A stretch of 64,000 nt of DNA from Planctomycetia bacterium (GTDB taxonomy: Bacteria; Planctomycetota; Planctomycetia; Gemmatales; HRBIN36). Positions 40,520 to 61,936 of this stretch are shown in pieces (position 1 is the first letter of the stretch; the number at the start of each line of letters is the position of its first letter). The notes beneath the pieces were generated by a model that saw only the letters and a list, made by a program, of their open reading frames with translations, was not told where the DNA came from and made no database searches. Location of the stretch: the NCBI GenBank assembly GCA_016795155.1, contig JAEUIE010000015.1, positions 163,178 to 227,177 of the forward strand, given 5' to 3'. The translations under genes and the position numbers were made by a program.

Positions 40520-41380
40520 TTAAAAATCAGCGGGAATGGATAACACCGGGCAGTGGGCGTTCTGCAGTACCTGTTCAGTCGTTGTGCCTCGCAGCATATC
40601 GAGAAATCCTTGCGAACCTTTGGTGACCATAATGATGAGATTGGCACCACCCTCTTCTGCAGCATTAAGAATTTCTGTAACTGGTCGCCCCTCTCTGCTG
40701 ATCTTAACCACCTTCCACGGACCTTCAGGTACAGTAACATGGGGATAGGATTGATCAGCCCCAACATGCAACAGAGTGAGCGTTGCATTATTTTTGCCAA
40801 AAGCCGTCAGCGCCCGCAGGGCGCGTTCAATAGCACCGCCTGCTGGAGGGGTATGATCAACAGGAATCAGAATATGATCCAATGTGACATGCCCGTCATC
40901 CGGAGAAACACAGCCGTGTACTCCTGAAGGCACAAAGAGCGTTGGCAACGCCATCTTGCGAGACACCTGTTCAGCAGTGGAAGGCTTGAGCCAATTGGCT
41001 AATCCCGTGCGCTGCCGGGTTGCAAGGACCAGCATATCTACCGATCCCTTGTCCAGATAGCTGGAAATGCCGCCAACAATATTGCTGGTGTCATACACAT
41101 TGATTTTCTCGATCTCAATTCCCAGTTTGGATACATCAGCTCGCCGGGCACCCGGCTCCAGCATCCCCCACCGCTGGAGCGTCTCGCGCACGGAAGGAAA
41201 ACTGTCCCAATCCGCATGCTTGTCCCTGCTCACATGCATGATGGTCAATCGGGCATGATTGTTGACTGCCAGCCGCAATGCATGAGCAAAGGCGAATTCT
41301 GAATCTTCTGAGAAATCCGTTGCATGCAGAATATACTTGGCAACTTCACTGAAACGATTGGGAACAGTTTCGCTGGACAT
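40520..41380 (-). CDS. Universal stress protein, tandem UspA domains
   Basis: ILHATDFSEDSEFAFAHALRLA...LTIMHV, then a second unit ILIPVDHTP...LTLLHV...GTTTEQVLQNAHCPVLSIP. Confidence 0.8.
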   Translation of the reverse strand: MSSETVPNRFSEVAKYILHATDFSEDSEFAFAHALRLAVNNHARLTIMHVSRDKHADWDSFPSVRETLQRWGMLEPGARRADVSKLGIEIEKINVYDTSNIVGGISSYLDKGSVDMLVLATRQRTGLANWLKPSTAEQVSRKMALPTLFVPSGVHGCVSPDDGHVTLDHILIPVDHTPPAGGAIERALRALTAFGKNNATLTLLHVGADQSYPHVTVPEGPWKVVKISREGRPVTEILNAAEEGGANLIIMVTKGSQGFLDMLRGTTTEQVLQNAHCPVLSIPADF

Positions 41381-45381: not shown

Positions 45382-45394
45382 ATTGGCTCCTTTT

Positions 45395-46447
45395 TCAGCA
45401 GATGCGGGGTAGCGGCGAACCACTGGGTTCATCCAGTGATTGTTCCCGCCCCAAGGTTCGGCGAATAATCACGGGAGTTACAGCACGAGACTCAACTCTG
45501 CCAATGATCGCAGCGTGACGTGAGATTTCAACCTTGCGAAGTATCGAAACTGCCTCTTCGGCATGTTGTGCTGAAACTGCCATCAGCATTGTTCCTTCGC
45601 ATGCCAGATGCAGAGGCTCTAATCCCAGCAGTTCACAGGCGCTGCGGGTAACTGCATCAATCGGGATGCAACTTTCATCAACGAATAGCGTCTTCTGGCT
45701 GGCTATTGCCCATTCATGCAGTACAGCAGTGATTCCGCCACGGGTGGCATCACGCATGGCACGCACTTCGCTGCCAATTCCAGTTCGCAATGCACTGATG
45801 GCAGGGAGCAACAATGCTCCATCACTGCTGGGTGCAGGGTGGAAATCAAGTTGCTCACGTGCAGCAAGAATGGCAATGCCATGCCGGCCAATGTGGCCGG
45901 ACGTTATCAAGACATCTCCTTCCTGTAGCGACTCTGCTCCAGGTGGAACAGGTTCCATCAACTCCCCAATGCCTGTAGTATTTAGGAAAATTCCATCCGC
46001 TTCACCATGCGGTACCACCTTGGTATCTCCGGTGATAATCTGCACCTGGCACTCGGCTGTGGTTTGGGCGATGCTATGGAGAACTTTCTCCAGCACAGCT
46101 ATTGGCAAGCCTTCCTCCAGAATCAGGGAAAGGCTCAGCCAACGTGGAATGGCGCCACTCACTGCGAGATCATTACAGGTGCCATACACTGCAAGTGAAC
46201 CAATATCGCCACCAGGGAAAAAGATGGGGGAAACCACATAGCTATCAGTGCTGAACGCAAGCCTGTTGCCTGCTGGCTGCAGAATAGCAGCATCGGCAAA
46301 GGGCAAAGTACATCCCAGGCTGGGATGTACTATTTGATCCAGTAAACGCCGCATGAGCCTGCCACCCTCGCCATGAGCGAGTGTGACACAGTCGGACTGT
46401 GCGGATACGCTCACCGGACAATTAAGTAACCAGGCAGGGTGGGCCAT
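45395..46447 (-). CDS. hypE: Hydrogenase maturation protein HypE
   Basis: LAHGEGGRLMRRLL near the N-terminus, an AIR-synthase-like fold, and the canonical C-terminal PRIC. I prefer the start at MAHPAW (46447). The track's 62-aa extension overlaps hypD. Confidence 0.9.
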   Translation of the reverse strand: MAHPAWLLNCPVSVSAQSDCVTLAHGEGGRLMRRLLDQIVHPSLGCTLPFADAAILQPAGNRLAFSTDSYVVSPIFFPGGDIGSLAVYGTCNDLAVSGAIPRWLSLSLILEEGLPIAVLEKVLHSIAQTTAECQVQIITGDTKVVPHGEADGIFLNTTGIGELMEPVPPGAESLQEGDVLITSGHIGRHGIAILAAREQLDFHPAPSSDGALLLPAISALRTGIGSEVRAMRDATRGGITAVLHEWAIASQKTLFVDESCIPIDAVTRSACELLGLEPLHLACEGTMLMAVSAQHAEEAVSILRKVEISRHAAIIGRVESRAVTPVIIRRTLGREQSLDEPSGSPLPRIC

Positions 46448-46460
46448 CGAGTCATTCCTG

Positions 46461-47558
46461 TCAGGTGATGATCGGCAAACGATAACGATAGTAGGCAGCA
46501 CACGCCCCTTCTGAGGAAACCATTGGAGCGCCCATTGGAGTTTCGGGCGTACATGCCTTGCCAAAACTGGGGCATTCCGTTGGCCGCATCTGTCCGGAAA
46601 GAACTTCTCCCGCTTGACACAAACTTGCATCATTCTGCACTTTGGCCGGCATCATGCCAAACCGTTTGCCTGCATTGAACTGCTCCCATTTAGCCCGTAA
46701 TCTATAGCCACTTTCCGGTATTTCTCCCAACCCACGCCATTCCTGATCATTCACTTCATAAACCTGATCAATCAATTGCCGGGCTGACAGATTTCCTTCA
46801 AGACGAACACTGCGAGGGTATTGGTTAGATGTCTGGGCATTACCCGATTCCAATTGCCTGATACATTCGTGAATACCAGCCAGCAGATCGAGTGGCTCAA
46901 ATCCGGTGACAACCACTGGTACCTGGTATTTCTCCACAAAGGACGCATAGGTGTCGTAACCCATGACGGTACAGACATGGCCTGCAGCCAGGAATGCCTG
47001 CACGCGCACCTCAGGCAATTGCATGATCGCCTCCATGGCTGGCTGAACACGCACATGATGTACCAACAGGGAAAAATTCTTAAGACAGAGTTGATGTGCC
47101 TGAAGCACTGCCAGTGCAGTAGCAGGAGTTGTAGTCTCAAACCCCACAGCAAAAAAGACCACTTGTCTTTCAGGGTGCTGCTCAGCGAAACTCACTGCCT
47201 CCAGCGGCGAGTAGACCATTTTGACAGTTCCACCCTGAGCACGTGTTTGAAGCAAAGAGGAGGTAGAACCTGGCACACGCAACATGTCGCCAAAGCTGCA
47301 CAGCGTGATGTCAGGCTGCCTGGCTAACTCCTGCGCCTGATCCAGCACCCCAATGGGAGTAACGCAGACTGGGCAGCCGGGGCCATGTACCAGTTCGATG
47401 TCATCCTTTAGTGCCGATTCAATTCCATATTTAAGCAGGCTATGCGTCTGACCGCCACAGACTTCCATCAGCACCCAGCGGCGACTGGCTAAACGCTGGA
47501 TGCGTGTTATCCATTGATGAGCCTGATCCCGGTCACGATATTCATCAAGGTATTTCAT
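46461..47558 (-). CDS. hypD: Hydrogenase maturation protein HypD
   Basis: MKYLDEYRD, MEVCGGQTH, GPGCPVCVTP and GFETT. Confidence 0.9.
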   Translation of the reverse strand: MKYLDEYRDRDQAHQWITRIQRLASRRWVLMEVCGGQTHSLLKYGIESALKDDIELVHGPGCPVCVTPIGVLDQAQELARQPDITLCSFGDMLRVPGSTSSLLQTRAQGGTVKMVYSPLEAVSFAEQHPERQVVFFAVGFETTTPATALAVLQAHQLCLKNFSLLVHHVRVQPAMEAIMQLPEVRVQAFLAAGHVCTVMGYDTYASFVEKYQVPVVVTGFEPLDLLAGIHECIRQLESGNAQTSNQYPRSVRLEGNLSARQLIDQVYEVNDQEWRGLGEIPESGYRLRAKWEQFNAGKRFGMMPAKVQNDASLCQAGEVLSGQMRPTECPSFGKACTPETPMGAPMVSSEGACAAYYRYRLPIIT

Positions 47559-47826
47559 GAATGTCGCCCGCTGGTGGTATCTCGGTTGCCAACTCTTCGC
47601 GTAATGCAAACTGGTCAAGTTCATCAAACAGGCGGCGTGCCTCATCTGGGTTGACCTTGCTGATGGCTATGCCAGCATGGACGATGACGTAATCTCCTAT
47701 CTCCGCTTCGGGCACGCACGCCAAGTGACAGACACGGGACAATTCACCAAACCGCACTTCTGCCCTGGCCAGTAGCGGATCGCGGTCGATCCATCGCGTT
47801 ACTTCGCCGGGAATTCCCAGGCACAT
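47545..47826 (-). CDS. hypC: Hydrogenase maturation chaperone HypC
   Basis: N-terminal MCLGIPGEV. 93 aa. 14-nt overlap with hypD. Confidence 0.9.
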   Translation of the reverse strand: MCLGIPGEVTRWIDRDPLLARAEVRFGELSRVCHLACVPEAEIGDYVIVHAGIAISKVNPDEARRLFDELDQFALREELATEIPPAGDIHEIP

Positions 47827-47835
47827 AACAACTCC

Positions 47836-50091
47836 TCAAAGTGAAAGACAGTTCAGCCGTGCAGCAGCCACCACGAGTTGCCCTGCAGCCAGACCACCAT
47901 CATTGCAGGGAATCATCCCTGGTAAACCTATCCGGCTATTATCATCAAGCAGTTCATTGACCAGTTCAACCAGAATCTTGTTCTGAAAACAGCCGCCAGC
48001 AAGCACTACCGGATATGATGGATAGCTTCGAATGATCGCAACAATCGTCTCTGCAACGCTCCGGTGAAAGCGCATCGCAATCGTGCCTGGTTGCTGACCT
48101 TGCTGCATATCATGGAGAATTTCGTGCAGCATGGGGCGCCAGTCGAGTTCATGGCTGTTAATTGGAAAGCAATAGCTGCCCGTAGCAGAGCGATCGCAAC
48201 AGGCTTCCAGCAGCATGGCTGGTTCGCCTTCATAATGTGCTTCAAACCGTGAAAGCAGCAGACAGGCAATGCCATCAAAAAGCCTGCCAACACTGGTTGT
48301 CTGCACATGCAACTGAGGCACATCGAGCAAAGGCAACCATGGCTGATAAGGCTCTTCTACCTGGCGCTGCTGTAGCACATTGATCAGTTCATGATGATCG
48401 TACAGTTGGCTAAGTAAGGAAAGTGTCACACGGCCTGGCTGCTTGACCGCCATCTCACCGCCGGGCAGTGTAAATGGTCGTAGGTGAGCCAGTCGTCTGG
48501 CTTCAGTGACATTTGCCATCAAGACCTCTCCGCCCCAAATACTGCCATCCCCCCCATAGCCAGTGCCATCGAATGCAATACCCAGCACGGTCTTGCCTAG
48601 CCAGCCATGTTCCAGCATGGCAGCAACCATATGAGCGTGGTGATGCTGTACTGCAAGCCTCGGCGTTGCCTGTTGTTCTGCCCAGCGGGTGGTAAAGTAG
48701 TCGGGATGCAGATCATGCACCAGATGGCCTGGCTCACAATGATATAGCTGGCACAACTGCCGATACTGTTCCACGAATCGTGATTGACCGGCAACGGTAT
48801 CCATATCCCCGATATGCGGGCCGAGTATCGATTGCTCTCGATTACATAACGCCATCGCCACTTTCTGATGCCCCCCCAGGGCAACCAGTGGCAGTGTGAT
48901 GTTGACAGGCAAAGTATGAGGAGCCAACCCCCGACCCAGGCGGATCACACTCATCCGATTAGCCATGCAGCGTACGACACTGTCATCGATGGGACGGACA
49001 ATATCACGATCATGATTCAGCATCTGATCACTGATGTTGCCAAGCTGTTCAGCCGCCGCAGAGGGAGTATAAGCCAGCGGTTCCCCTTCGCGGTTGCCAC
49101 TGGTAATAACGAGAGGATGATCTACCGCTGAACAGAGCAGATAATGGCAGGCGGTGGTCGGCAGCATGATGCCCACTTCATTCAAACCGGGATGGACATG
49201 ATTTGATAATCCATTGACAGTATGAGCCCGGCAGAGAACAAGAGGGCCAGCACGACTGGTGAGTGCCTTTTCATTTCCTGTCATGTCTGCCAGAGTTGAT
49301 GCTGCTTTCAGATCTCTGACCATGACCGCGAGTGGTTTGCTGACTCTGCCTTTACGCTGGCGAAGCGTTAATACGGCAAGATCGCTGGTGGCATCACAAA
49401 TCAACTGGTAGCCGCCGATTCCTTTGAGTGCAAGAATTCCGCCATTTCTGATGAGTGTTGCACCAGCATCGACGGCCGTTCGAGAATCGTGTAACTCTGC
49501 TCCAGACAAAGTCGGACCACAATGCACGCACGACATGGTTTGGGCATGGAATCGACGATCAGATGAAGCAGTAAACTCGTTCCTGCACTCCAGGCACAAC
49601 GGAAACCGCTTCATGCTCGTATGCTCTCGCTCGAAAGGCATCGAATGCAGAATCGAAAAACGTGGACCACACTGGGCACAATTATTGAACAGATAGTTTT
49701 GTCGTCGGGAATCGTTCCCGCACAGAACTTCTTGCAGGCATTGCCCGCATATGACAGTATCGTGAGGTACGCGTGCCCGGAGGGTAGATACGATCGAACC
49801 TGCATGAACATCGAAGCGACGATGCCCTTCTGGATACACTTCTTTCGTAATCTGATCTGAAATTACTGCTTCATCTGGCAACTGGCTGGCTAGCCCCATC
49901 AGAAAGCGATGCATGTTGACCCCATTGCCCTCCGCATGCATCACTACGCCGGAAGGTTCGTTGGCTACCCAGCCGAAGATATTGCAGGCTGATGCCCAGC
50001 GCAATACCGCAGGTCGCAGGCCAATTCCCTGCACTTGTCCCTGCAGTAACACTCGCCTGGCCATGCGGTCAGGAAATGCGGCATGTGGCAT
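47836..50091 (-). CDS. hypF: Carbamoyltransferase HypF
   Basis: Acylphosphatase-like LLQGQVQGIGLRPAV, two CxxC...CxxC zinc fingers (CGQCLQEV...CAQCGPRF; CLECRNEF...CVHCGP), and YrdC and Kae1-like domains. The start is ambiguous (ATG 50142, 50091 or 50064). Confidence 0.9.
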   Translation of the reverse strand: MPHAAFPDRMARRVLLQGQVQGIGLRPAVLRWASACNIFGWVANEPSGVVMHAEGNGVNMHRFLMGLASQLPDEAVISDQITKEVYPEGHRRFDVHAGSIVSTLRARVPHDTVICGQCLQEVLCGNDSRRQNYLFNNCAQCGPRFSILHSMPFEREHTSMKRFPLCLECRNEFTASSDRRFHAQTMSCVHCGPTLSGAELHDSRTAVDAGATLIRNGGILALKGIGGYQLICDATSDLAVLTLRQRKGRVSKPLAVMVRDLKAASTLADMTGNEKALTSRAGPLVLCRAHTVNGLSNHVHPGLNEVGIMLPTTACHYLLCSAVDHPLVITSGNREGEPLAYTPSAAAEQLGNISDQMLNHDRDIVRPIDDSVVRCMANRMSVIRLGRGLAPHTLPVNITLPLVALGGHQKVAMALCNREQSILGPHIGDMDTVAGQSRFVEQYRQLCQLYHCEPGHLVHDLHPDYFTTRWAEQQATPRLAVQHHHAHMVAAMLEHGWLGKTVLGIAFDGTGYGGDGSIWGGEVLMANVTEARRLAHLRPFTLPGGEMAVKQPGRVTLSLLSQLYDHHELINVLQQRQVEEPYQPWLPLLDVPQLHVQTTSVGRLFDGIACLLLSRFEAHYEGEPAMLLEACCDRSATGSYCFPINSHELDWRPMLHEILHDMQQGQQPGTIAMRFHRSVAETIVAIIRSYPSYPVVLAGGCFQNKILVELVNELLDDNSRIGLPGMIPCNDGGLAAGQLVVAAARLNCLSL

Positions 50092-50746
50092 GTGAAGTTG
50101 TAATCCGCTGTCGCTGGGTTTCCAGATAGCTGCACCAGGCATCGATACCGGTGTTCTTCCAGGCAGATAATGTCAGTACAGTCAGGTCAGGTTGAATACG
50201 ATGAGCATCACGTTCTGCAGCCTCCACCGAAAAGGGAACATGAGGCAGTAGATCGCACTTACTGAGAACGAGCGCCTGACTGGTACGAAACATTTTCGGA
50301 TATTTGCCCGGCTTGTCGTCCCCCTCGGTAACGCTGAGTAGCACCACGCGATGGTGTTCACCAAGATCAAAAGACGCTGGGCAGACCAGGTTGCCAACGT
50401 TTTCGATGAAGAGAAAATCGTAAGGCTGAGCAGGCAACTTCAGCCAGCCTTGTTCAACCAGTGTAGTGTTCAAGTGGCACGCGCCTCCAGTCGTCAGTTG
50501 CTGGGTGGGGGCATAGCGCAACAGTCGTTCTGCATCACGTTCCGTGGCGATATCGCCAACCAGTACTGCCATGCGGAATCGGCCGTTCCAGTGTCGAGCC
50601 GTTGCTTCCAGCAGGCTCGTTTTGCCAGCACCGGGTGATGAAACGAGATGAACCACCAGCGTACCCTGATTGGTCCACGTCTGACGAAGCCCGTCTGCAT
50701 GCGCCTGCTGTTCGCTTAAAACAGGTTTGTCTACCAGAATCTTCAT
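50069..50746 (-). CDS. hypB: Hydrogenase nickel-incorporation GTPase HypB
   Basis: P-loop SSPGAGKTSLLE, ENVGNLVCP and LSKCDL. No His-rich N-terminus. Confidence 0.9.
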   Translation of the reverse strand: MKILVDKPVLSEQQAHADGLRQTWTNQGTLVVHLVSSPGAGKTSLLEATARHWNGRFRMAVLVGDIATERDAERLLRYAPTQQLTTGGACHLNTTLVEQGWLKLPAQPYDFLFIENVGNLVCPASFDLGEHHRVVLLSVTEGDDKPGKYPKMFRTSQALVLSKCDLLPHVPFSVEAAERDAHRIQPDLTVLTLSAWKNTGIDAWCSYLETQRQRITTSHATCRIS

Positions 50747-50764
50747 GAGCAGTCTTTCAAATCC

Positions 50765-51103
50765 TCATTCCATGAGTTTAACATAAAGCAGCTGAAACGC
50801 ATCACCCCCGGTAATCTGTACCGACGAAGACTGGCATGCCGGGCATTCCGAAGCAAATTTCTCCATGGCCCACTTATGTTCGCAGGATTTACAACGTGCT
50901 GTCACCAATCCTGTCTTCACAGTTAAATTCGCTTGTGGGTGCTGTGTTACAAATTCCCGAAATGCTTCATGTAATAACTCTGGCTCGACACCACTTAAGC
51001 TGCCCGCTTCAACAGCAATTTCCAGCACTGCAGCTCCCCCATATTCTTCCTGAATGGAGCTTACCTGCTTGAGGAGAGCCAGCATCAATGATCGTTCATG
51101 CAT
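50765..51103 (-). CDS. hypA: Hydrogenase nickel-insertion protein HypA
   Basis: Starts MHERSL. Zinc site CKSCEHKW...CPACQS. Confidence 0.85.
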   Translation of the reverse strand: MHERSLMLALLKQVSSIQEEYGGAAVLEIAVEAGSLSGVEPELLHEAFREFVTQHPQANLTVKTGLVTARCKSCEHKWAMEKFASECPACQSSSVQITGGDAFQLLYVKLME

Positions 51104-51557
51104 GGTCGAGTTCACTGGCCAGTTGACGCAGGATGTCAGGCAGCAGAGCAGTTATCTCTGAAGACAGAGGCTGGCCTGTTTCAAAGCTTTTCCCCTCAAT
51201 TCCCCAGATGACAACACGGCGAGGCAGCATTTCCAAACGATGAGCCAGTGACAGTGTGTCGGGCAGGCTGAGTTGATGGGTATTCATCGAACGCAGCGAC
51301 TTCACGCCGGGAATGATTCCTTCGAGAAATTGACCATGTGCCCCACACTGCCACCGATATACCTGGCCCGGTGTTCCACCACTCTGGCAAGCATCAAATA
51401 CATAGAGCTGATCAACACCATTCAGCCAGTGCAACAGGCCCGCAGGTATTGCCGCCTGTCGAAAGGGAAGGTCAGCCAATCGGCCCAGATCCTCCGCGAG
51501 TTTCCAGCCTACCTGGTCATCGCCATGATGGCTGCCCAGGCCAATCAATAAACGCAT
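51096..51557 (-). CDS. [NiFe]-hydrogenase maturation endopeptidase (HoxW/HycI/HybD family)
   Basis: MRLLIGLGSHHGDDQVGW fits the family's N-terminal GxxxxxDD(x)xG pattern. 153 aa. The start at 51557 lies 10 nt after the large-subunit stop. Confidence 0.75.
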   Translation of the reverse strand: MRLLIGLGSHHGDDQVGWKLAEDLGRLADLPFRQAAIPAGLLHWLNGVDQLYVFDACQSGGTPGQVYRWQCGAHGQFLEGIIPGVKSLRSMNTHQLSLPDTLSLAHRLEMLPRRVVIWGIEGKSFETGQPLSSEITALLPDILRQLASELDHA

Positions 51558-51567
51558 AGGCCTTTTT

Positions 51568-52863
51568 TCAGCCACGATCCACCGTAAGCTTGAGGAAATG
51601 CGTCGAGCAACTGATGCACGGATCATAACAGCGAATCAGCCGTTCGCATTCGCTGGCAACCTGAGCGTCTGCAAGATGTATCAGACGAGGTAGATATTCA
51701 CGAAGATCATCTTCCATCTGCCTTTGATTTTGTGAAGTGGGAGGAACGATCTTAGCAAAGGTGACCTTACCCTGTTCATCTACCTGATAACGGTGATAAA
51801 TCAGGCCCCGTGGCGCCTCGGTGGCTGCACAACCTTCCGCCTTCTGATAAGCTGCATTCTGGCGAGCAGGCGCAAATGGCCGATAGTTTTGGAGAATATC
51901 CAGTGCCTCCTCATAAGCATGCACCACCTCCAGACATCGGGCTATGATCGATTGGAAGGGGTTGTTGCAGGGCACAGTAAATCCCACTTCTGCTGCAACC
52001 TGTTGTGCCATTGGCGAGAGCATATCGAAGTTGAGATTCACCCGTGCCAACGGGCCGACATGGTAACAGGCTCGGGTTTGTTTGTATACAGAATGCAATG
52101 CGGTGCTGTGTTGCACCTGTTCCTCTTCAAACACGTTTTCATATTCATCAAAAGGCAGATTTAATCCTGTAGTAGAACAGATATTGCCTTCGTTCATTGG
52201 ATACTCATCTGGATGCACGAGCGCAACCATATCATACGGACGCGACATTTCTGGAATTGGAAATGCAGCGACCCACCGTGTCGCAGCCACTGCAGCCTCC
52301 AGCCCCCACTGGAAATCAGGAATCAGCCTGGCCAGTTCTTCACGCCGTGGAACTCGATAGAATCCGCCAACCGCCACATTGATCGGGTGGATGGCTCTGC
52401 CACCCAGTATTTCCAACAACTCGTTGCCATGCTTTTTCAGTCGCAACCCGCGTGTAACCTCCTGCGGAAACCGTTCAGCCAGTTGAATGCCGCTGGTGCA
52501 GCCGAAATAGTCAGGTGCATGCAGCAAATGCACGTGCAACACATGGCTTTCGATCCATTCGCCACAGTATAACAGCCTGCGCAGTTGCCTGATTTCGTGT
52601 GGAACTGTGATAGACAACGCGTTCTCCATGGCATGCACTGCCGTCATCTGGTAGGCAATCGGGCAGATCCCGCAGATACGGGCCACCACATCGGGTACTT
52701 CGTTCAGTGGCCTGCCTCGAAGAAATGCTTCAAAGAATCGTGGAGGTTCATAGATAGCCAGTTGAAGATCTTCAATCACATTGCCCTTGAGCCGTATGTG
52801 CAACCCCCCTTCCCCTTCGACACGGGTAAGTGCATTGACTTGAATGGTTCTCGATGGTGTCAT
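51568..52863 (-). CDS. hyhL: Group 3b [NiFe]-hydrogenase large (alpha) subunit
   Basis: N-terminal Ni-binding RICGICP and C-terminal DPCISCSTH followed by a 9-residue tail (FLKLTVDRG). 431 aa. The beta-gamma-delta-alpha gene order matches Pyrococcus sulfhydrogenase. Confidence 0.88.
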
Positions 52864-53672
52864 GTGCCTGTCATCGGTAGTGGGAATTTGCCATCTAATC
52901 TGCTGCTGATGTCCCGAAACTCCGGAGCATGGGCATTGTAGTTGCGTAACAATGGGATGAGGCTATCGCCTGTGATGCCTTGCGATCGATAGTGTTGAAT
53001 CAGGCTTCGGGCATTAGCCTGATAAGCAGGGCCAAAACAGGTGTAGCAGCCTCGATCATACGCAGGGCAGATGGCCCCGCATCCTGCCTGTGTCAACGGC
53101 CCCAGGCAGGGAACTCCGCGGGCAACAGCAATGCAGACCGTTCCACGCAGCTTGCATTCCACGCAGACGCCGTAAGCAGGCAGCCTGGGTTTGCTGCCTG
53201 CCAGCAAGCTGCGAATGACATCGAGCAATTGATGCCGATTGATCGGACAGCCACGCAGTTCATATTCCACTTTGACATGATCAGCAATGGCAGTGGAGCT
53301 TGCCAGGCTGGAGATGTAATCAGGCCTGGCGTAGACTGCCTTGAGAAACTCCTGGTGATCGCCCCAGTTCCGCAGAGCCTGAATACCTCCCGAAGTGGCA
53401 CAGGCTCCAATGGTGATAAGAATCTTCGATTGCCTGCGAATCTCCTGAATGCGCTGCTGATCATGTGGCGTGGTGATGGAACCCTCTACCAGAGTAATAT
53501 CGTAAGGTCCCTTGACAATGGTACTGCTGGCCTCAAGAAAGTAAGCAATCTCCACCAGTCCGGCGACTGTCAAAAGCTCATCTTCACAGTCAAGGAGCGA
53601 CAATTGGCAACCATCGCAGGACGCGAATTTGAAGACAGCCAGTTTGAGTTTGGATTCAGCCAGGTGGCTCAT
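52860..53672 (-). CDS. hyhS: Group 3b [NiFe]-hydrogenase small (delta) subunit
   Basis: [15 protein letters not shown] and further Cys clusters ([17 protein letters not shown]). 4-nt ATGA overlap with the alpha gene. Confidence 0.85.
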
Positions 53673-54502
53673 CAGAGCCCCTCCACGGCCATCAGCGGCC
53701 TGATGTGATCATATCGGAAAACAGGACCATCCTTGCAGACAAAAGTTCCTCCAAGCTGACAATGACCACAATGACCGATGGCACAATTCATATGTCTTTC
53801 GAGTGAAAGCCAGATCTGGCCTTCCGGTATGCTCTTCGACATAGCCGCCTTGGCGACAAAATGCATCATGACTTCCGGGCCACAGGTCATCAGGACAGTT
53901 TCCGCAGGGTCTGTCACCGCCAGCCTGTCCAGTAATTGAGTGATCACCCCCACTTGTCCGTTCCAATATTCATCAGCCCGATCAACTATAACTTCAACTT
54001 GAATGCCTTGATTTCTCCAGTTGTCATATTCACGGCCATAGAGCAAGCCTGCCGGGCTACGAGCACCATGCAAGATCGTCAACTTGCCAAAACGTTGGGG
54101 TTCCTGCAGCACGGCATGAATGACTGGCCGCACCGGTGCCAGTCCAATTCCACCCGCAACCACGATAATATCTTTGCCATGGCACTGATCCATAGGCCAG
54201 GCAGTGCCGAATGGTCCACGCATACCAATGGACATGCCAGGCTTTAACTGTGTAATGGCATGCGTTACATTGCCTGCTTCCCGAATCGTATGATGCAGCA
54301 CCGGGCCGGTCATCCCACTGAGAGAAATAGCTGCCTCGCCAACACCGGGCACATACAGCATATTGAACTGCCCGGGTGCATAGGTGAAGGGATGCTGTAC
54401 TCCATCCAGCACAAAATCAAATGTGCTGACACCAGTTATCTCTTCATGGACTCTGACCAGCCTGGCAGGTGCAGGCTGCCAGGGATTGCCGGAATGTATC
54501 AT
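53672..54502 (-). CDS. hyhG: Group 3b hydrogenase gamma subunit (FAD/NAD(P)-binding, 2Fe-2S; PyrK-like)
   Basis: Ferredoxin-reductase-type fold ([15 protein letters not shown]) and a C-terminal cluster [24 protein letters not shown] prefer the start at MIHSGNPW (54502), which forms an ATGA overlap with the beta stop. Confidence 0.85.
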
Positions 54503-55635
54503 GTCGAATTGCCCCCCGTTGCGACATGCAGCATGGGCAGTGAAATCGACTTGCGAATAGCGGTAACCTCTTCGGTAATATCGATTCCTACCGGGCACCA
54601 GGTGATACATCTGCCACAGCCAACGCAGCCCGATGTGCCAAACTGGTCATGCCAGCTTGCCAGCTTATGTGTCATCCACTGACGGTAACGGTCGTGAATC
54701 GTTTTCCGTACCGTTCCACCGTTGGTATAGCTCAAATCGGTATTGAAACAGGAATCCCAGCGTCGGACACGGTCCACTTGCTCGGACTGAAGATCGGTCA
54801 CTTCCGAGACAGTTGAACAGAAACACGTTGGGCAGACCATCGTGCAGTTGGCACAGGATAAACATCGCTGAGCGACAAGTTCCCATCGTGGATGATTCAG
54901 GTTATTCAGGAGTATATCGCGTATACCATCGGTATCCATTTGCTTGCTGATCTGACGTTCCGCCTGTGCTCTGGCTTCTTCCCCTTGCCTTAACTGTTCC
55001 GCGGTAGCCTCGTATGAGTGGAGTTGTTTCGCAATGGTTTCACCCAATGTGGTTCCCACTTCAACAATGAAGCCATCGCTGAGTTCCGTAAGGCCCAAAT
55101 CGAAACCGGAGGTGCAACGTGGCCCCGTGTTCATCGAGGTGCAGAAACAGGTGGATGCAGCCTGGGTGCAGTTGACAGCAATCAGGAATAGATTCTCCCG
55201 CTGGGCCTGGTAATATGGATCGACATAGGGGCCATGCAGAAAAACGCGATCCTGCACAGCCAGCGCTGCCAATTCGCAAGCGCGCATGCCCAGCAAGGCG
55301 AGTTTCTGCACAACTGGCTCAGGTGTTTCCATTTTCCAGCCTAGTTGCACTCTGATAGCTGTGCCCACTTTGATGCTTGGTGGAAACAGGTATTTCTTCC
55401 AGGAATGCGGGCCTACCACAAACCCGAAATATTGATCATCTTCCCGTTTCTTCAGCCTGTAGTGGCCTGGCTGTTGTTCATCCGTCCAGCCTCGAGGCAA
55501 CTCGCCAACACTTTGTAGGGCATCATAGACAATGGCATCCTGGCTGAGGGTGGGGCCAACGACCTGATAACCCTGTACGATCAGCAGATCGATCAGCGAC
55601 TGAAGTTCAGCATTGGCGAGGAACTGTGGTTTCAT
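54499..55635 (-). CDS. hyhB: Group 3b hydrogenase beta subunit (4Fe-4S dicluster protein, AsrA/HydB-like)
   Basis: 378 aa. CxxCxxC-type clusters (CLSCANCTMVCPTCFC, CVGCGRCITWCP). Confidence 0.85.
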   Translation of the reverse strand: MKPQFLANAELQSLIDLLIVQGYQVVGPTLSQDAIVYDALQSVGELPRGWTDEQQPGHYRLKKREDDQYFGFVVGPHSWKKYLFPPSIKVGTAIRVQLGWKMETPEPVVQKLALLGMRACELAALAVQDRVFLHGPYVDPYYQAQRENLFLIAVNCTQAASTCFCTSMNTGPRCTSGFDLGLTELSDGFIVEVGTTLGETIAKQLHSYEATAEQLRQGEEARAQAERQISKQMDTDGIRDILLNNLNHPRWELVAQRCLSCANCTMVCPTCFCSTVSEVTDLQSEQVDRVRRWDSCFNTDLSYTNGGTVRKTIHDRYRQWMTHKLASWHDQFGTSGCVGCGRCITWCPVGIDITEEVTAIRKSISLPMLHVATGGNST

Positions 55636-56111
55636 CAGTGAACTTGAACTACGGGTTCATTCTCAGCATACATATCGAGCAGTTGCAGGCGGGTAGCAGT
55701 CAGTCGCCTCGATAGTGCCTGTGCGATACGCTGCATCATGAGGAAGCCGATTTCGTGATCTGCCTGGCACAGTGCCAGAAACTTCTCTGCTGGCCAGGCG
55801 ATTAACGTGGCGGGCACGATGGTGACAGCAGAAGTAGTCATTACACCATTTCCTAAAAGAGCTGACCATGCCAGTATTTCTCCCGGACCAACGCTCAGCA
55901 CCCGTTTCAGTCCACGCCGCGGGATGTGGATATCCAGAGCCACAGTTCCTTCCACCACCAGATAAAAGGTATGGTGACTCATATTCTCCTGAAACAAAGT
56001 TGTTGAAGAGGCATAATGCTGCACCACTGCCGAGGCTGCAAGCCGATGCAGATGATGATCGGACATCCCCTCCAGTAATGGAACTGTTCGTAAAGTTGCA
56101 GAAATGTCCAT
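55635..56111 (-). CDS. Stand-alone cyclic-nucleotide-binding-fold (CNB) protein without DNA-binding domain
   Basis: 158 aa. LLEGMSDHHLHRLAA...FYLVVEGTVAL...VGPGEILAWSALLG fits the CNB beta-roll. The phosphate-binding-cassette Arg is not evident (MTTSAV where R[ST]A is expected). TGATG overlap with the hydrogenase beta gene. Confidence 0.7.
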   Translation of the reverse strand: MDISATLRTVPLLEGMSDHHLHRLAASAVVQHYASSTTLFQENMSHHTFYLVVEGTVALDIHIPRRGLKRVLSVGPGEILAWSALLGNGVMTTSAVTIVPATLIAWPAEKFLALCQADHEIGFLMMQRIAQALSRRLTATRLQLLDMYAENEPVVQVH

Positions 56112-56355
56112 AAGGCAAACGAGACCAGCAGGAATAAAGAATCAGGATGCCATTGTGATGAATTTGGGTGCAACTTGCAAGAAGGAACACTTGAGTACTG
56201 GTAAGCGATCAGTCGTAGTATGCAGGAGTCTTCACCATAAAACTGATGCCATTGCTGCTTCAGCCTCGCGTTTTTGCCTATCGCTTCAGACTGGCCTTGC
56301 ACCCTTGTTGATTCCTGCTATGGTGCCGAACCATCGTATTGCGAGGGGGCGGATC

Positions 56356-56535
56356 ATGTCTGGAATTCGATGGCTGTTGAGTTCAGTGCTGTTCCTCTTG
56401 GCAACGGGAAGTTCTGGGTGTTACGTCACCGATTGGCGCTGGATCTGGGAGGATGACGATGACTATCACTGTGAAAAAGTCCAGGTGCAGATGCCGGGTA
56501 GTACTATGGCTGTCTCTGTTCCTGCTCAGCGTTAG
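56356..56535 (+). CDS. Possible small lipoprotein (59 aa); doubtful
   Basis: ATG at 56356 with GAGGGGG upstream. MSGIRWLLSSVLFLLATGSSGC is a good lipoprotein signal. The last 80 nt overlap the next gene out of frame. Confidence 0.3.
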   Translation: MSGIRWLLSSVLFLLATGSSGCYVTDWRWIWEDDDDYHCEKVQVQMPGSTMAVSVPAQR

Positions 56536-57055
56536 TCTTAGCGGATGCATGCTGGCTGCTGCGGGTGCCGTAGCTGGAGCCGGAGCGTATGCCTATTACC
56601 AGGGCAATTATTCGCAGATGCACGCCGCAGAATTCGGCAGAACCTGGCAGGCTGCCAAGTCAGCGCTCAGCGATCTGGCTTTGCCGGTGATCAGTGAACA
56701 TCATGAAGGGCTGAAAGGCACCATCAAATCAAGCCTGCCAGATGGCACCAGCATCAGCATCGATCTGGAAGAGCAGCCTCGTATCATGGCAAGCGACAGC
56801 CATCAGACCGAAGTGAACGTACGCGTTGGTACCTTTGGCGATCAAGCACAAAGCCAGAAGATTCAGCAGCAGATTCAGTCACACATTGTTGGCCAGAATG
56901 TCACAGCTCCACCAGCCAATCGTTTGCCTCCATTGAATTCAACAGTGGCTCCGCCGCCACCTGCGACGAGCACCTCAAATGCCACGCCACCACCTGCGAC
57001 AGGCCCCCAATGGAAGCCTGCTACCGCAACTGGTTCACAAACACTGCCACCCTAA
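56453..57055 (+). CDS. DUF3568-like lipoprotein with Pro-rich C-terminal tail
   Basis: Lipobox SVSLSGC, then AGAGAYAYYQGNYSQ...WQAAKSALSDL...GTIKSSLPDGTSISIDLEE...VNVRVGTFGD. This matches my memory of the DUF3568 pattern. The tail reads APPPPATSTSNATPPPATG. Confidence 0.6.
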   Translation: MTMTITVKKSRCRCRVVLWLSLFLLSVSLSGCMLAAAGAVAGAGAYAYYQGNYSQMHAAEFGRTWQAAKSALSDLALPVISEHHEGLKGTIKSSLPDGTSISIDLEEQPRIMASDSHQTEVNVRVGTFGDQAQSQKIQQQIQSHIVGQNVTAPPANRLPPLNSTVAPPPPATSTSNATPPPATGPQWKPATATGSQTLPP

Positions 57056-57475: not shown

Positions 57476-58753
57476 TTGAGCCCATCAAAACTGATTCGAT
57501 TCCTCCTCCTGCTGGCACCGGGCATCTTCACTCTCTCCACCGGCTGCCAGAAAGAACGACAAGCACCTCCCCAGCCGCCTCCCCCTGTTGTTTCTGTTTC
57601 CCAACCCGTTCTGCAGAACGTGCAGATGTACAACGAATATAACGGCAACCTCGAAGCGGTGGAATCGGTCCAGATCACTGCTCGCGTCAAAGGGTTTCTT
57701 AACGAAATACTGTTCAAGGAAGGCGACGAAGTTCAGAAAGACAGTCTGCTCTTTCAGATTGATCCGCGAGAGTACGTTGCCGCTGTCAAGAGAGCCGAAG
57801 CAGACAGGCAGAAGGCCGAAACCGAATTGAAACGAGCAGTCAAGGAAGAAGAACGCGTGGCAAAACTTCGGACAACAGGCGCTGTCAGCGAAGAGGAGTT
57901 TGAACAGCGTGTTGCAGCCAAGGATGCTGCCCAGGCAACACTGAGACAGACCGAGGCAGCAAAGGAAGCCAGTCAACTGCAATTGGATTTCACCGAAATA
58001 CGAGCACCTATTAAAGGGCAGATCAGCCGAACCCAAGTCACCCGCGGTAACCTCGTTGGACAGAATGACAACACCATGCTGACCACCATCGTCAGCATGG
58101 ATCCACTCTATGTCTATTTCGACATTCCCGAACGCGATCTCGTCGAATATCAGCGGGCATTGCAGGCTGGCCAGCAGGCCGAAGTGCTGAGCAGAAAGCT
58201 GCCTCTGGATATTGGCGTCGCCACAGAACAGGGTTTCCCGCATCCTGGGTTCATCGACTTCCGTGAGAACCGCGTCGATTCAGGCACCGGCACGGTCCGC
58301 ATTCGCGGTCGGGTTGACAATCCTCGCGTTCCGCCTGGCAACGCTCGTCTTCTGTATCCAGGGTTGTTTGCCCGTGTCCGCGTGCCTTTTGGAGATGCCC
58401 GATCCATCCCGGTGATTCCCGAAGATGCACTCATGACCGGCCAGGAAGGTCGTTATGTCTATGTGCTGGGCGAGGGCAATGTGGTTCAGAAGCGAACGGT
58501 CACCATCGGCCCAGCCATCTGGAAATCTGCCCTTCCGAAAAAAGATGATCCACTCGGCTGGACGCTCGAAGCTGCACAGCCGAATCCTGAAAAGAAAGAG
58601 GCGAAACCTGTCTCTGTCACATCGGTCATCTCCATCACCAGTGGTTTGTCTCCTGAAGACAAGGTAGTGATCAACGGCTTGACCAAAGCAAGACCCGGCT
58701 TACCCGTCACTCCAGAAATGCAGGTATTGAAACCGCCACCTAAGGCGAAGTAA
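57476..58753 (+). CDS. RND efflux periplasmic adaptor (membrane fusion protein) lipoprotein
   Basis: TTG start with GGAG 7 nt upstream. Lipobox LSTGC. Coiled-coil hairpin and barrel motifs (YNEYNGNLEAVESVQITARV, FTEIRAPIKGQIS). Confidence 0.88.
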   Translation: MSPSKLIRFLLLLAPGIFTLSTGCQKERQAPPQPPPPVVSVSQPVLQNVQMYNEYNGNLEAVESVQITARVKGFLNEILFKEGDEVQKDSLLFQIDPREYVAAVKRAEADRQKAETELKRAVKEEERVAKLRTTGAVSEEEFEQRVAAKDAAQATLRQTEAAKEASQLQLDFTEIRAPIKGQISRTQVTRGNLVGQNDNTMLTTIVSMDPLYVYFDIPERDLVEYQRALQAGQQAEVLSRKLPLDIGVATEQGFPHPGFIDFRENRVDSGTGTVRIRGRVDNPRVPPGNARLLYPGLFARVRVPFGDARSIPVIPEDALMTGQEGRYVYVLGEGNVVQKRTVTIGPAIWKSALPKKDDPLGWTLEAAQPNPEKKEAKPVSVTSVISITSGLSPEDKVVINGLTKARPGLPVTPEMQVLKPPPKAK

Positions 58754-58789
58754 TCGTTCGTTTCATTCCCTAGCATTCAGGATTCATCT

Positions 58790-61700
58790 ATGTTTTCGCG
58801 GTTCTTTATCGACCGACCTGTCTTCGCCAACGTTATCGCGGTCATCACGATTCTCTTTGGTCTAGTAGCACTCTATCGGCTGCCCGTGGAACGCTACCCC
58901 GCCATCACGCCGCCCACGGTGGTTGTCAGCGCAGTATACCCTGGCGCTAATGCCAAAGTGGTTGCCGACACGGTAGCCGCTCCTATTGAACAACAGGTAA
59001 ATGGCACCGAGAACATGATGTACATGTCCTCCACCAGTTCTGCTGATGGCTCCTATGCACTGACCATTACTTTTGAAATTGGCACCAATCTCGATGATGC
59101 CCAGGTGCTGATTCAGAATCGCGTCTCCATTGCCGAGCCAAGCCTTCCCGAAGAAGTGCGCAGGCAAGGCCTTTCGGTGAAGAAGCAATCTTCCAACATC
59201 GTGCTGGCAGTATCCCTCACTTCGCCGAGCAAGAAGTACGACAGCCTGTTCCTTTCCAACTATGCGACGTTGCGATTGCGTGATGAACTCAGCCGTGTCG
59301 AAGGTGTGGGTGATGTCATGGTTCGCGGCGTCGGTTCTTATGCCATGCGTGTCTGGCTCGATCCCGACAAACTTGCCGCCCGGCAACTTACTACCCAGGA
59401 TGTGACAGCTGCCCTCGCCCGTCAGAACATTCAGGTAGCAGCCGGCCAGATCGGACAGCCTCCCACTCCCGATGGCCAGCGGTTCCAGATGACAGTGACC
59501 ACTCTGGGGCGACTCACCGATCCGGAACAGTTCGAGAAGATCGTCATCAAATCCAGCATCGCTGGTCAGGTAGTCTATCTCCGTGACATTGCCCGGGTGG
59601 AGCTCGGCGCGCAGACCTACGATTCATTCGCTTCCCGCAATGGCAATGACTCTGCCAACATTCTGATTTATCAGTTGCCAGGCTCCAATGCCATCAATGT
59701 CTCCAAGGCTATCCGGGTTGCCATGGAACGCATCAAGCCAACGCTTCCTGATGGAATGGAATACGCGATTCCCTTTGACACTACCAAGTTCGTCGATGCC
59801 GCTATTCGCGAAGTCTATGTGACCTTGTTTGAAGCAGGTGTGCTGGTGCTCATAGTCATCCTCGTCTTCCTGCAAAGTTGGCGGGCCTTGCTCGTTCCAG
59901 CCACCACCGTACCTGTCACCATTATCGGCGCATTCGCCTTCATGCCGATGCTGGGCTTTTCAGTGAACATGTTGACACTGTTTGGCCTGGTATTGGCCAT
60001 CGGCATCGTGGTGGATGATGCCATCGTGATTGTGGAAAATGCTGCACATCATATCGAACGGGGCCTCGCCCCACGTGAAGCTACCATCAAAGCCATGTCC
60101 GAAGTGACGGGCCCGGTGATCTCCATCACATTGGTTTTGATGGCGGTGTTCCTGCCAACCGCTTTCATGGGTGGCATCACCGGCCAGCTCTATCGCCAGT
60201 TTGCTCTCACTATTGCTGCCACCGCCATCATCAGTGCCATCAATGCATTAACCCTGAAGCCTGCTCAGTGTGCAACTTACCTCAGGCCTCATACTGGCAA
60301 GAACATCTTCACCAGGATATTTGATTTCGTCTATCGCCCCATTGAATGGGGTTACACCTGGTGCATCAGGCAACTGGTCAAAGTCTGGGTTATTGTTCTA
60401 TTGCTCTTTGCCGGCCTGGCTGGTTTTACCGCCTGGTGGTATCAGCGAACGCCGACAGGCTTTTTGCCTACTGAAGATCAGGGCTATGTCATGATCTCGA
60501 TCAATCTGCCCGATGCAGCGTCGCTGGATCGCACGCACGATGTGATGGAACGCATGAACAAGGTCTTCGCCAGCACCAAGGGAGTGCAGCACTGGTTTGT
60601 GATTGGCGGTTTCTCCATGCTGGAAGGCACCAGCGCCCCCAATGCCGCCACCGCCTTCGCTGCCTGGTCCGACTGGTCGGAACGCACCACGCCGGAGCTT
60701 TCCCAGGAATCGCTAGTTCGCCAACTGCAGATGGAGTTCGCTAAGATTCAGGAACCCTTTGTCCTGGTATTGGTTCCGCCCTCCATTCAGGGGCTTGGCG
60801 TATCCGGTGGGTTCCAGATGATGGTCGAAGACAAGGAAGGCGTTGGCCCAGATATTCTGCAGGAACGTACACAGGCCATACTGGACGCTGCCAAAAAACG
60901 ACCAGAAATCGGCATGGCGGCATCCACTTTCCGCGCCGGTGTGCCTCAGATATATCTGAACATTGACCGCACCAAGGCTGAACGCATGGGCGTTCTGCTC
61001 AGTGATGTCTTTGCGACGCTGCAGGCAAACCTCGGCTCGGTCTACGTGAATGATTTCAACAAGTTCGACCGAACCTACCAGGTGCGTGTGCAGGCGGATG
61101 CTGCATTCCGAGGCGATCCGAGCAAACTGCGTCGCTTGGAAGTTCGCAACCGCACCGGTGGCCGCGTTCCCTTGGCCACACTGCTCGATGTCGAGAACCG
61201 CATCGGCCCACAGTCCATAGCTCGATACAACCTCTATCGTGCAGCATCCATCAATGGCGGCTCGGCACCAGGCGTCAGTTCGGGCGAAGCGTTGAAAACC
61301 ATGGAAGATATTGCCGGCGAAGTGTTGCCTCGCTCCATGGGATTCGAATGGACTGGAATTGCCTTCCAGGAAAAACGCATCAGCGGTGAGGCAGTGATCG
61401 TCTTCAGTCTGGCTGTCTTCCTCGTTTACCTGGTGCTGGCTGCACAATATGAAAGCTGGATTCTTCCGCTGGCAGTGATTCTCGTGGTACCGCTCGGCTT
61501 ACTGGGCGTGGTCGCAGCGGTCAACATCCGGGGTATGGATAACAACATCTACACCCAGATTGGCGTGGTGTTGATCATTGCACTGGCCAGTAAGAATGCC
61601 ATTTTGATCGTCGAGTTTGCCCGCGAGTTACGTCTGTCGGGTAAAACTATTCTCGAAGCTGCCATTGAAGCAGCTAAAATGCGTTTCCGCCCGATTCTCA

Positions 61701-61936
61701 TGACCAGCTTCGCATTCATCCTCGGCGTCATGCCTTTAGTCTGGGCTCGCGGCGCCGCAGCGGCCAGCCGACAAGCCCTGGGCACCGCAGTCTTCGGCGG
61801 CATGATTACTTCCACCGTACTGGCTGTCTTTTTCGTCCCCGCTTTCTATGTTGCCATTCAAAGCTTCATCGAACTCATCAGCGGTCCGCCGAAGAAGATC
61901 GTGGATGTACCCAAAACACCGGATACCACGCATTAG
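58790..61936 (+). CDS. RND multidrug efflux permease (AcrB/MexB family)
   Basis: MFSRFFIDRPVFANVIAVI; 1048 aa; GIVVDDAIVIVEN; 12-TM architecture. Confidence 0.93.
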   Translation: MFSRFFIDRPVFANVIAVITILFGLVALYRLPVERYPAITPPTVVVSAVYPGANAKVVADTVAAPIEQQVNGTENMMYMSSTSSADGSYALTITFEIGTNLDDAQVLIQNRVSIAEPSLPEEVRRQGLSVKKQSSNIVLAVSLTSPSKKYDSLFLSNYATLRLRDELSRVEGVGDVMVRGVGSYAMRVWLDPDKLAARQLTTQDVTAALARQNIQVAAGQIGQPPTPDGQRFQMTVTTLGRLTDPEQFEKIVIKSSIAGQVVYLRDIARVELGAQTYDSFASRNGNDSANILIYQLPGSNAINVSKAIRVAMERIKPTLPDGMEYAIPFDTTKFVDAAIREVYVTLFEAGVLVLIVILVFLQSWRALLVPATTVPVTIIGAFAFMPMLGFSVNMLTLFGLVLAIGIVVDDAIVIVENAAHHIERGLAPREATIKAMSEVTGPVISITLVLMAVFLPTAFMGGITGQLYRQFALTIAATAIISAINALTLKPAQCATYLRPHTGKNIFTRIFDFVYRPIEWGYTWCIRQLVKVWVIVLLLFAGLAGFTAWWYQRTPTGFLPTEDQGYVMISINLPDAASLDRTHDVMERMNKVFASTKGVQHWFVIGGFSMLEGTSAPNAATAFAAWSDWSERTTPELSQESLVRQLQMEFAKIQEPFVLVLVPPSIQGLGVSGGFQMMVEDKEGVGPDILQERTQAILDAAKKRPEIGMAASTFRAGVPQIYLNIDRTKAERMGVLLSDVFATLQANLGSVYVNDFNKFDRTYQVRVQADAAFRGDPSKLRRLEVRNRTGGRVPLATLLDVENRIGPQSIARYNLYRAASINGGSAPGVSSGEALKTMEDIAGEVLPRSMGFEWTGIAFQEKRISGEAVIVFSLAVFLVYLVLAAQYESWILPLAVILVVPLGLLGVVAAVNIRGMDNNIYTQIGVVLIIALASKNAILIVEFARELRLSGKTILEAAIEAAKMRFRPILMTSFAFILGVMPLVWARGAAAASRQALGTAVFGGMITSTVLAVFFVPAFYVAIQSFIELISGPPKKIVDVPKTPDTTH

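Follow-up and report, generated by a model that had tools for sequence, protein, structure and literature searches.

A CRP-like sensor module without an output domain is co-inherited with predicted group 3b [NiFe]-hydrogenase genes in at least three bacterial phyla

The window analysed here is the whole of a 64,000-nt stretch from a Planctomycetia bacterium (Planctomycetota; Gemmatales; HRBIN36; GenBank assembly GCA_016795155.1, contig JAEUIE010000015.1, positions 163,178 to 227,177 of the forward strand). On its minus strand lies an operon for a predicted group-3b-type [NiFe]-hydrogenase, the first gene of which encodes a small protein made of a cyclic-nucleotide-binding (CNB) fold. An earlier note on this DNA had singled out the gene, proposing that its 158-aa product lacks a helix-turn-helix (HTH) domain and acts as a fifth subunit or dedicated sensor of the hydrogenase rather than as a transcription factor. 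The open reading frame (ORF) is real, with the boundaries and length that the note gave it, and lies on the minus strand. The operon and its upstream region are laid out as follows.

55635..56111, minus strand: CNB-only protein, 158 aa, ATG at 56111 (ORF, Pfam, NCBIfam and AlphaFold2)
54499..55635, minus strand: hydrogenase beta subunit, 378 aa, AsrA/HydB/ShyB-like, with a Fer4_22 4Fe-4S dicluster domain (Pfam, NCBIfam and PDB profile)
53672..54502, minus strand: hydrogenase gamma subunit, 276 aa from an internal ATG, AsrB/HydG-like, with FAD, NAD(P) and [2Fe-2S] domains (Pfam and NCBIfam)
52860..53672, minus strand: hydrogenase delta (small) subunit, 270 aa, with an Oxidored_q6 domain (Pfam and NCBIfam)
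51568..52863, minus strand: hydrogenase alpha (large, [NiFe]) subunit, 431 aa (motifs, Pfam and NCBIfam)
56112..56452: intergenic stretch between the CNB gene and its divergent neighbour, presumed to contain the operon promoter

As the earlier note had read from the sequence, the stop codon of the CNB gene overlaps the ATG of the beta gene by 1 nt (TGATG), and the three remaining junctions overlap as well: beta/gamma by 4 nt (ATGA) when gamma begins at its homology-supported internal ATG at 54502, gamma/delta by 1 nt (TGATG), and delta/alpha by 4 nt (ATGA). A promoter and terminator scan around the operon returned nothing beyond the shuffled background and no notable internal terminator, and the region 56112..56452 showed neither an outstanding sigma-70-like site nor an obvious Shine-Dalgarno sequence.

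The subunits resemble those of the sulfhydrogenases. In NCBIfam, beta best matched ShyB (3e-50) and also matched HydB, gamma matched AsrB (1e-60) and HydG (1e-46), delta matched HydD (6.5e-53), and alpha matched ShyA (7e-81) and HydA (1e-75), as against 2.5e-44 for VhuA and 3.8e-43 for FrhA; all of these scores fall under the Pyrococcus equivalog cutoffs, as expected of a bacterial homologue. Beta also matched the beta subunit of sulfhydrogenase 1 (9nez_B) at 5.6e-41. The translated alpha subunit carries RICGIC near its N-terminus and DPCISCSTH followed by a 9-aa extension at its C-terminus, so that the N-terminal CxxC and the C-terminal DPCxxCxxH of group 3b are both present in a protein closest to sulfhydrogenase alpha. 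The electron-transfer module of the group is represented by the AsrA-like beta and the AsrB-like gamma with its FAD, NAD(P) and [2Fe-2S] domains. Judged by these matches, the operon is predicted to encode a group-3b-type (sulfhydrogenase-type, NAD(P)-linked) [NiFe]-hydrogenase.

We then examined the fold of the CNB protein. Pfam assigned cNMP_binding (PF00027) as its sole domain (residues 31-118, E 7.6e-13, 48.7 bits against a gathering cutoff of 27.5), and neither Pfam nor NCBIfam found an HTH family in it. The NCBIfam FtrB and CRP models matched with their N-terminal sensor half only (positions 7-140 of models of 214-251 residues), far under their cutoffs. An AlphaFold2 model built with 29 orthologues (pLDDT 90.5, pTM 0.82) consists of a beta-barrel, one long C-helix (residues 119-149) and a disordered tail; the protein stops about 10 residues past the C-helix, and no domain follows the helix. 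Foldseek matched the model to many CNB domains with a probability of 1.00, which places it in the CNB fold, and grouped it with the sensor domain plus C-helix of Mycobacterium tuberculosis CRP and Corynebacterium glutamicum GlxR, helix 119-149 superposing on the C-helix of CRP and GlxR. A C-terminal HTH, the detection of which by profile search would by the earlier note's own account have refuted it, was not found, the model agrees, and a hidden domain of this kind is ruled out. Taken together, these results describe the CNB protein as a sensor module of the CRP type (beta-barrel plus C-helix) without an output domain.

Comparison with solved structures places this module more closely. With the CRP/FNR proteins (Escherichia coli CRP, M. 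tuberculosis CRP, GlxR and FtrB) it shares the sensor fold and the long C-helix, at a query-normalised TM score of 0.74-0.78, and the RRL...T motif of its C-helix aligns with R122-R123-L124 and T127-S128 of CRP. It differs from them in having no winged-helix DNA-binding domain and in not conserving the E72 and R82 contacts of CRP. The closest solved CNB-only protein is Gmet_1532 of Geobacter metallireducens, a structural-genomics target (PDB 3mdp), which matches at a profile E of 1.7e-20 and a target-normalised TM score of 0.90 (root-mean-square deviation 1.7 A, 23% identity). It too is a stand-alone barrel with a C-helix and a non-canonical cassette (G-V-S-S-L-I-K-P-Y-H-Y), whereas its construct stops short of the conserved C-terminal motif described below, aligning up to ...RL.

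The ligand pocket departs from that of known cyclic-nucleotide receptors. A HMMER alignment to PKG places Trp82 at the position of the canonical Glu of the phosphate-binding cassette (PBC) and Met91 at that of the Arg; against both CNB domains of PKG, A81-W82 falls on the canonical Gly-Glu and M91-T92 on Arg-Thr. A MAFFT alignment with CRP agreed in pairing Trp82 with Glu72 and set Thr92 opposite Arg82. Trp82 and Met91 are invariant in the 29 planctomycete orthologues, whose invariant cassette residues read A81-W82-S83 ... M91-T92 ... A95. In wider sampling, Planctomycetota and a lineage of fusion proteins described below share the cassette [AG]-W-S ... M-T-x-S-A, while Proteobacteria and Actinobacteria have G-x-S-W-x-x-P-P-x-x-W, which is likewise non-canonical. 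The earlier note had remarked that the usual Arg is missing and that the ligand may therefore not be cAMP or cGMP. That remark was right but understated, because both residues that contact a cyclic nucleotide are gone: Met91/Thr92 stand where the Arg should be, and the Glu has been replaced as well.

These alignments bear directly on the possibility of a genuine receptor for cAMP or cGMP that links the hydrogenase to cyclic-nucleotide signalling. The Pfam cNMP_binding match does exceed its gathering threshold, and the closest solved structures include cAMP-bound CRP and GlxR and cGMP-bound PKG domains. Yet a functional receptor is marked by a PBC Glu, which contacts the ribose 2'-OH, together with a PBC Arg, which contacts the cyclic phosphate, and both are absent here, replaced by the invariant Trp82 and Met91; an Arg at position 90 occurs in some orthologues only; and the proteobacterial and actinobacterial cassette is different and non-canonical too. 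The PBC alignments rule out canonical cAMP or cGMP binding, the pocket is predicted to be incapable of it, and we consider a true cyclic-nucleotide receptor highly improbable. Conserved residues that might instead hold a metal or haem were not found: Cys115 is invariant in Planctomycetota and absent from the Rhodococcus and operonic Streptomyces forms, and the His residues vary.

The most conserved element of the family lies outside the barrel, in the distal C-helix, which carries the signature RLxATRLQLLDxY. Among the 29 planctomycete orthologues the invariant residues there are R136-L137-x-A-T140-R141-L-Q-L-L-D146, and T140-R141 align by MAFFT with T127-S128 of CRP, which lie on the C-helix at the ligand pocket and dimer interface. 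The motif is retained in the proteobacterial, actinobacterial and protease-fused forms; the version common to all forms, including stand-alone paralogues in Streptomyces, is R-L-x-[AS]-[TA]-R-x-[QR]-x-L-[DN]-x-Y.

We next asked how regularly the gene accompanies a hydrogenase. A scan with the family motif, taking one genome per species, returned at least 557 relatives, and we examined the best 80 loci, nearly all of them from metagenome-assembled genomes of Planctomycetota. By tblastn, beta lies directly downstream of the CNB gene in 77 of the 80, and on every contig of sufficient length gamma, delta and alpha come next. Of the remaining three loci, two run off the contig edge and one (L034:6791-7453) has no hydrogenase; no other complete planctomycete locus among the 80 lacks one. 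At L034 a PadR-family regulator follows the CNB gene, and two-component genes lie near. One Pirellulaceae locus (L058:3615-8620) is rearranged: CNB and beta share one strand, and upstream of them gamma, delta and alpha lie on the other. The estimated spacing between CNB and beta, obtained for 76 planctomycete loci, has a median of 42 nt and a maximum of 448 nt; it does not exceed 10 nt in 22 of these loci and 150 nt in 68.

The association extends to other phyla in a different arrangement. In Proteobacteria and Actinobacteria an orthologous protein of 152-154 aa is encoded between beta and gamma. The order beta-CNB-gamma-delta-alpha-protease, in which the CNB gene abuts or overlaps both neighbours, was found on annotated plasmids and genomes of Burkholderia thailandensis (Burkholderia being locus L081), Rhodococcus qingshengii, Rhodococcus sp. 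DK17, Streptomyces sp. BHT-5-2, Azotobacter chroococcum (L091) and Bradyrhizobium (L093). Adjacency of beta and CNB was also evident from match coordinates in B. savannae, Paraburkholderia, Pandoraea and S. rimosus. The proteobacterial form comprises at least 5,832 clusters at 90% identity, with source names spanning Alpha-, Beta- and Gammaproteobacteria. The window protein and its Burkholderia counterpart are 31% identical over 140 residues, the C-terminal motif included.

In at least three bacterial phyla, the CNB gene is thus inherited together with the structural genes of the hydrogenase, and the linkage is more than chance. Its survival of gene rearrangement indicates that the association is under selection, and its occurrence in at least three phyla with a changed gene order is the pattern expected of a functional partnership. 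Synteny in related genomes, the loss of which the earlier note had named as grounds for abandoning its proposal, is retained in the 77 loci and in the other phyla. Two of the note's more specific statements have to be narrowed. Its description of the CNB gene as the first cistron holds in the window and in Planctomycetota, but not in Proteobacteria and Actinobacteria, where the gene sits between beta and gamma. Translational coupling of CNB to beta is lineage-specific and not a conserved trait, given the 42-nt median among the 76 planctomycete loci; as a property of the whole family it is unsupported in Planctomycetota, and it holds on both sides of the CNB gene in the beta-CNB-gamma order.

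Conservation of the five proteins was compared among the Burkholderia, Azotobacter and Bradyrhizobium operons, which represent Beta-, Gamma- and Alphaproteobacteria. Identity among these Proteobacteria is 74-81% for CNB (the 152-aa form), 64-66% for beta, 66-68% for gamma, 78-81% for delta and 73-77% for alpha; that of CNB exceeds that of beta and gamma and is comparable with that of delta and alpha. This degree of conservation is consistent with strong constraint, with recent horizontal spread of the operon, or with both.

Members of the family also occur apart from hydrogenases. In Streptomyces, stand-alone CNB paralogues that keep the C-terminal motif are encoded away from the hydrogenase operon (L083:6962-7414 and L086:30901-31323), where they adjoin CBS-domain and universal stress protein (USP) genes and genes for a GAF sensor kinase and a response regulator that are DosS/DosR-like. 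Such paralogues favour another explanation, namely that the protein is a transcription co-regulator without an HTH. It would respond to a hypoxia- or redox-linked signal and control the operon by way of a partner protein, perhaps a full-length CRP/FNR protein with which it forms a heterodimer, perhaps some other regulator that it binds. The sensor-domain fold is that of CRP/FNR proteins, the islands of USP, CBS and GAF-kinase genes around the paralogues (L083; L086:30901-31323) resemble the DosR regulon, the orthologue at L034 stands beside a PadR regulator with no hydrogenase nearby, and the Frankia gene Francci3_4499, located between two diaphorase genes, has been labelled a 'small transcriptional regulator' (PMC11879354). 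Against this, the family members listed run into the hundreds and not one has an HTH, the neighbourhoods examined contain no conserved gene for a DNA-binding partner, and the CNB gene lies between structural genes with overlapping codons. Its conservation in Proteobacteria, equal to or above that of the catalytic subunits, would moreover be unusual for a dispensable regulator. We regard a co-regulator as rather unlikely.

A precedent that the earlier note had missed is HoxI (PHG093; L084:19836-20339) of the group 3d NAD+-reducing soluble hydrogenase of Cupriavidus necator H16 (formerly Ralstonia eutropha), which is the closest known analogue of the window protein. The soluble hydrogenase of C. 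necator is HoxHYFUI2, and HoxI co-purifies with the mature enzyme (PMC3702609); HoxI2 is a CNB-only homodimer on the diaphorase module, where it provides a site for NADPH activation (PMC3702609, PMC3189943). Like the window protein, HoxI (167 aa) consists of a CNB fold alone with no HTH, is encoded within the operon of a cytoplasmic [NiFe]-hydrogenase linked to pyridine nucleotides, and has lost the PBC Arg, in its case to His. Unlike it, HoxI retains the PBC Glu and has no RLxATRLQLLDxY helix motif. Its hydrogenase is of group 3d and its partner is the complex-I-like HoxFU, whereas the window protein accompanies AsrA/AsrB-like beta and gamma; and hoxI is the last gene, directly after the protease gene hoxW, whereas the window CNB gene comes first and those of other phyla lie between beta and gamma.

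Within group 3b itself, the Pyrococcus furiosus sulfhydrogenase I (SHI; 9nez, 9nf0) has the same beta/gamma/delta/alpha architecture and is the best match to the window subunits, but its solved structure has four subunits and no CNB protein, whereas the window and most sampled bacterial clusters carry a fifth gene; in the PDB, a group 3b enzyme is found only in this four-subunit Pyrococcus form. In Mycobacterium smegmatis, the Hyd3 genes for beta, gamma, delta, alpha and the protease run under consecutive locus tags (MSMEG_3931-3927; PMC2799521), so that Hyd3 appears to lack the CNB gene. The literature searches yielded no functional or structural work on the CNB gene of group 3b clusters, only passing mentions: besides the Frankia gene, the product WP_013415449.1 of a Rhodococcus equi group 3b cluster (PMC13332983) and a group 3b CNB gene called HoxI in the Methylocystis-like methanotroph 'M. 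acidophilus' 29 (PMC12319191).

A further line of evidence comes from natural fusions. A HMMER scan of 1.84 billion representatives yielded 237 members of the CNB family at E <= 1e-30, nearly all of them single-domain proteins of 150-230 aa. In two of the 237, P0208 and P0222, an N-terminal HycI-type maturation endopeptidase is fused to a C-terminal CNB module, and at least 12 distinct clusters of such fusions exist (P0208, P0222, P0268-P0279; 44-86% mutual identity). The fusion is the first gene of the operon, in the order [protease-CNB]-beta-gamma-delta-alpha with no separate protease gene, on six contigs from several samples (for example L087:8001-8978; also L088-L090). Fusions of CNB to beta or gamma were absent among the best 150 of the same scan and from the other family lists. 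In the window, the protease and the accessory maturation genes are separate and follow alpha, with ppsA after them:

51096..51626, minus strand: HycI/HoxW-type maturation endopeptidase, whose likely true start is an internal Met at about 51557
45395..51115, minus strand: maturation genes hypA, hypB, hypF, hypC, hypD and hypE, overall
50765-51115, minus strand: hypA
50069-50746, minus strand: hypB
47836-50142, minus strand: hypF
47545-47826, minus strand: hypC
46461-47645, minus strand: hypD
45395-46633, minus strand: hypE
42952-45432, minus strand: PEP synthase (ppsA), directly after hypE

The fusions, together with the position of C. necator hoxI directly after hoxW, make a maturation-linked role a serious rival. 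The CNB protein would then be a maturation or assembly cofactor that works with the HycI/HoxW-type endopeptidase or with the alpha precursor, gating the final proteolysis by its ligand while remaining outside the mature enzyme; the existence of 12 or more fusion clusters and the absence of a separate protease after alpha in the six fusion-led operons speak for it. Several points speak against it: the window and every proteobacterial and actinobacterial locus examined have the CNB gene grouped with the structural genes, and the protease and hyp genes downstream of alpha; the AlphaFold2 model of the fusion has two confident domains with no fixed mutual arrangement (pTM 0.50); HoxI, the only characterised analogue, co-purifies with the mature enzyme (PMC3702609); and operon neighbours that have become fused need not share a biochemical step. 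Overall, a role in maturation seems to us unlikely, though less so than a role as co-regulator.

In our reading, for and against which the chances are about even, the CNB protein would be a dedicated ligand-sensing accessory or regulatory partner of the group 3b hydrogenase, acting through protein contact. The barrel would take up a small ligand that is neither cAMP nor cGMP. Judging from HoxI, the best guess is a pyridine nucleotide or else some other redox or energy metabolite. Binding may reposition the C-helix as it does in CRP, with the RLxATRLQLLDxY end of the helix as the putative output surface, since the protein has no HTH through which to act. That end might dock on a component of the hydrogenase, most plausibly the diaphorase-like module of beta and gamma, and so tune activation or electron flow post-translationally; the protein is probably dimeric, like CRP and HoxI2. 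We put forward a stronger version more tentatively, as possible but less probable: that most bacterial 3b hydrogenases are five-component enzymes, in which a CRP-like sensor stripped of its DNA-binding domain has a Trp-lined pocket for a non-cyclic-nucleotide ligand, NAD(P)H or another redox metabolite for instance, and uses the invariant tip of its C-helix as an allosteric switch for either the diaphorase module or large-subunit maturation, and that this arrangement evolved independently of HoxI.

Several observations weigh against a partnership with the enzyme. Between phyla, CNB is the least conserved gene of the operon (28-47% identity), and the tight CNB/beta overlap that would couple their translation is not kept among Planctomycetota, where the gap has its 42-nt median. 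The well-studied four-gene systems, Pyrococcus SHI and M. smegmatis Hyd3, appear to work without a CNB protein. Stand-alone CNB paralogues exist outside hydrogenase clusters, and the only hydrogenase-related fusion partner found was the HycI-type protease, not beta or gamma. Orthology with HoxI is ruled out as well: BLASTP of the window protein against HoxI gave no alignment at E <= 100, and hhalign (90% probability) found 18% identity over the generic CNB core, so that the analogy with HoxI is functional only.

Other features of the window and of related loci were recorded alongside. The window holds a second CNB domain, fused to VanZ at 39716-40507 on the minus strand as the earlier note had described, which adjoins a tandem universal stress protein (40520-41380, minus strand). 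In its cassette, too, the canonical Glu and Arg are missing (aligned G-L-L-G ... Q-F-T-T), and it is no paralogue of the hydrogenase-linked family, since the two share only 14% identity. Divergent from the hydrogenase operon, a gene at 56453-57055 on the plus strand encodes a DUF3568 protein whose N-terminus is lipoprotein-like and whose tail is rich in Pro, Thr and Ala, and at 57476-61936, also on the plus strand, ORFs of 425 aa and 1048 aa resemble, from their translations alone, the periplasmic adaptor and the inner-membrane pump of an RND efflux system.

The surroundings of group 3b clusters show some recurrence between phyla. The ppsA gene that follows hypE in the window has a counterpart just upstream of the Rhodococcus 3b cluster (L082:1865-4174), and genes for USP, CBS-domain and DUF1876 proteins recur near the 3b clusters of several phyla. 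In Bradyrhizobium, a second [NiFe]-hydrogenase cluster and a USP gene directly precede the 3b cluster (L093:1-4130, L094:1-4121); this second cluster encodes a small subunit, a HoxH-like large subunit and a protein with CCG and Fer4 domains. The recurring USP, CBS and DUF1876 neighbours suggest a shared hypoxia or dormancy island.

Soil and aquatic bacteria widely carry group 3b hydrogenases, and the roles invoked for these enzymes include fermentative H2 production under hypoxia and NADPH-coupled use of H2. To our knowledge, the bacterial enzymes are poorly characterised biochemically. That the CNB gene has gone unstudied may be because the usual models, Pyrococcus SHI and M. smegmatis Hyd3, appear to lack it. 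The novelty of the finding is reduced by the HoxI precedent and by the earlier mentions of the gene in Frankia, R. equi and a methanotroph; the CNB family is nevertheless distinct from HoxI and belongs to another hydrogenase group, and its signature motif and the protease-fusion lineage were found nowhere described. If the protein is a subunit or an allosteric switch, heterologous expression of bacterial 3b enzymes and their use in NADPH regeneration would need it, and purifications at high salt may have stripped it; HoxI, for its part, is lost under high-salt, alkaline conditions. On the same condition, the family would be a second example, independent of HoxI, in which a CRP-type sensor acts directly on a hydrogenase. 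Concrete targets for mutagenesis are offered by the pocket, degenerate and containing Trp, and by the invariant motif of the C-helix.

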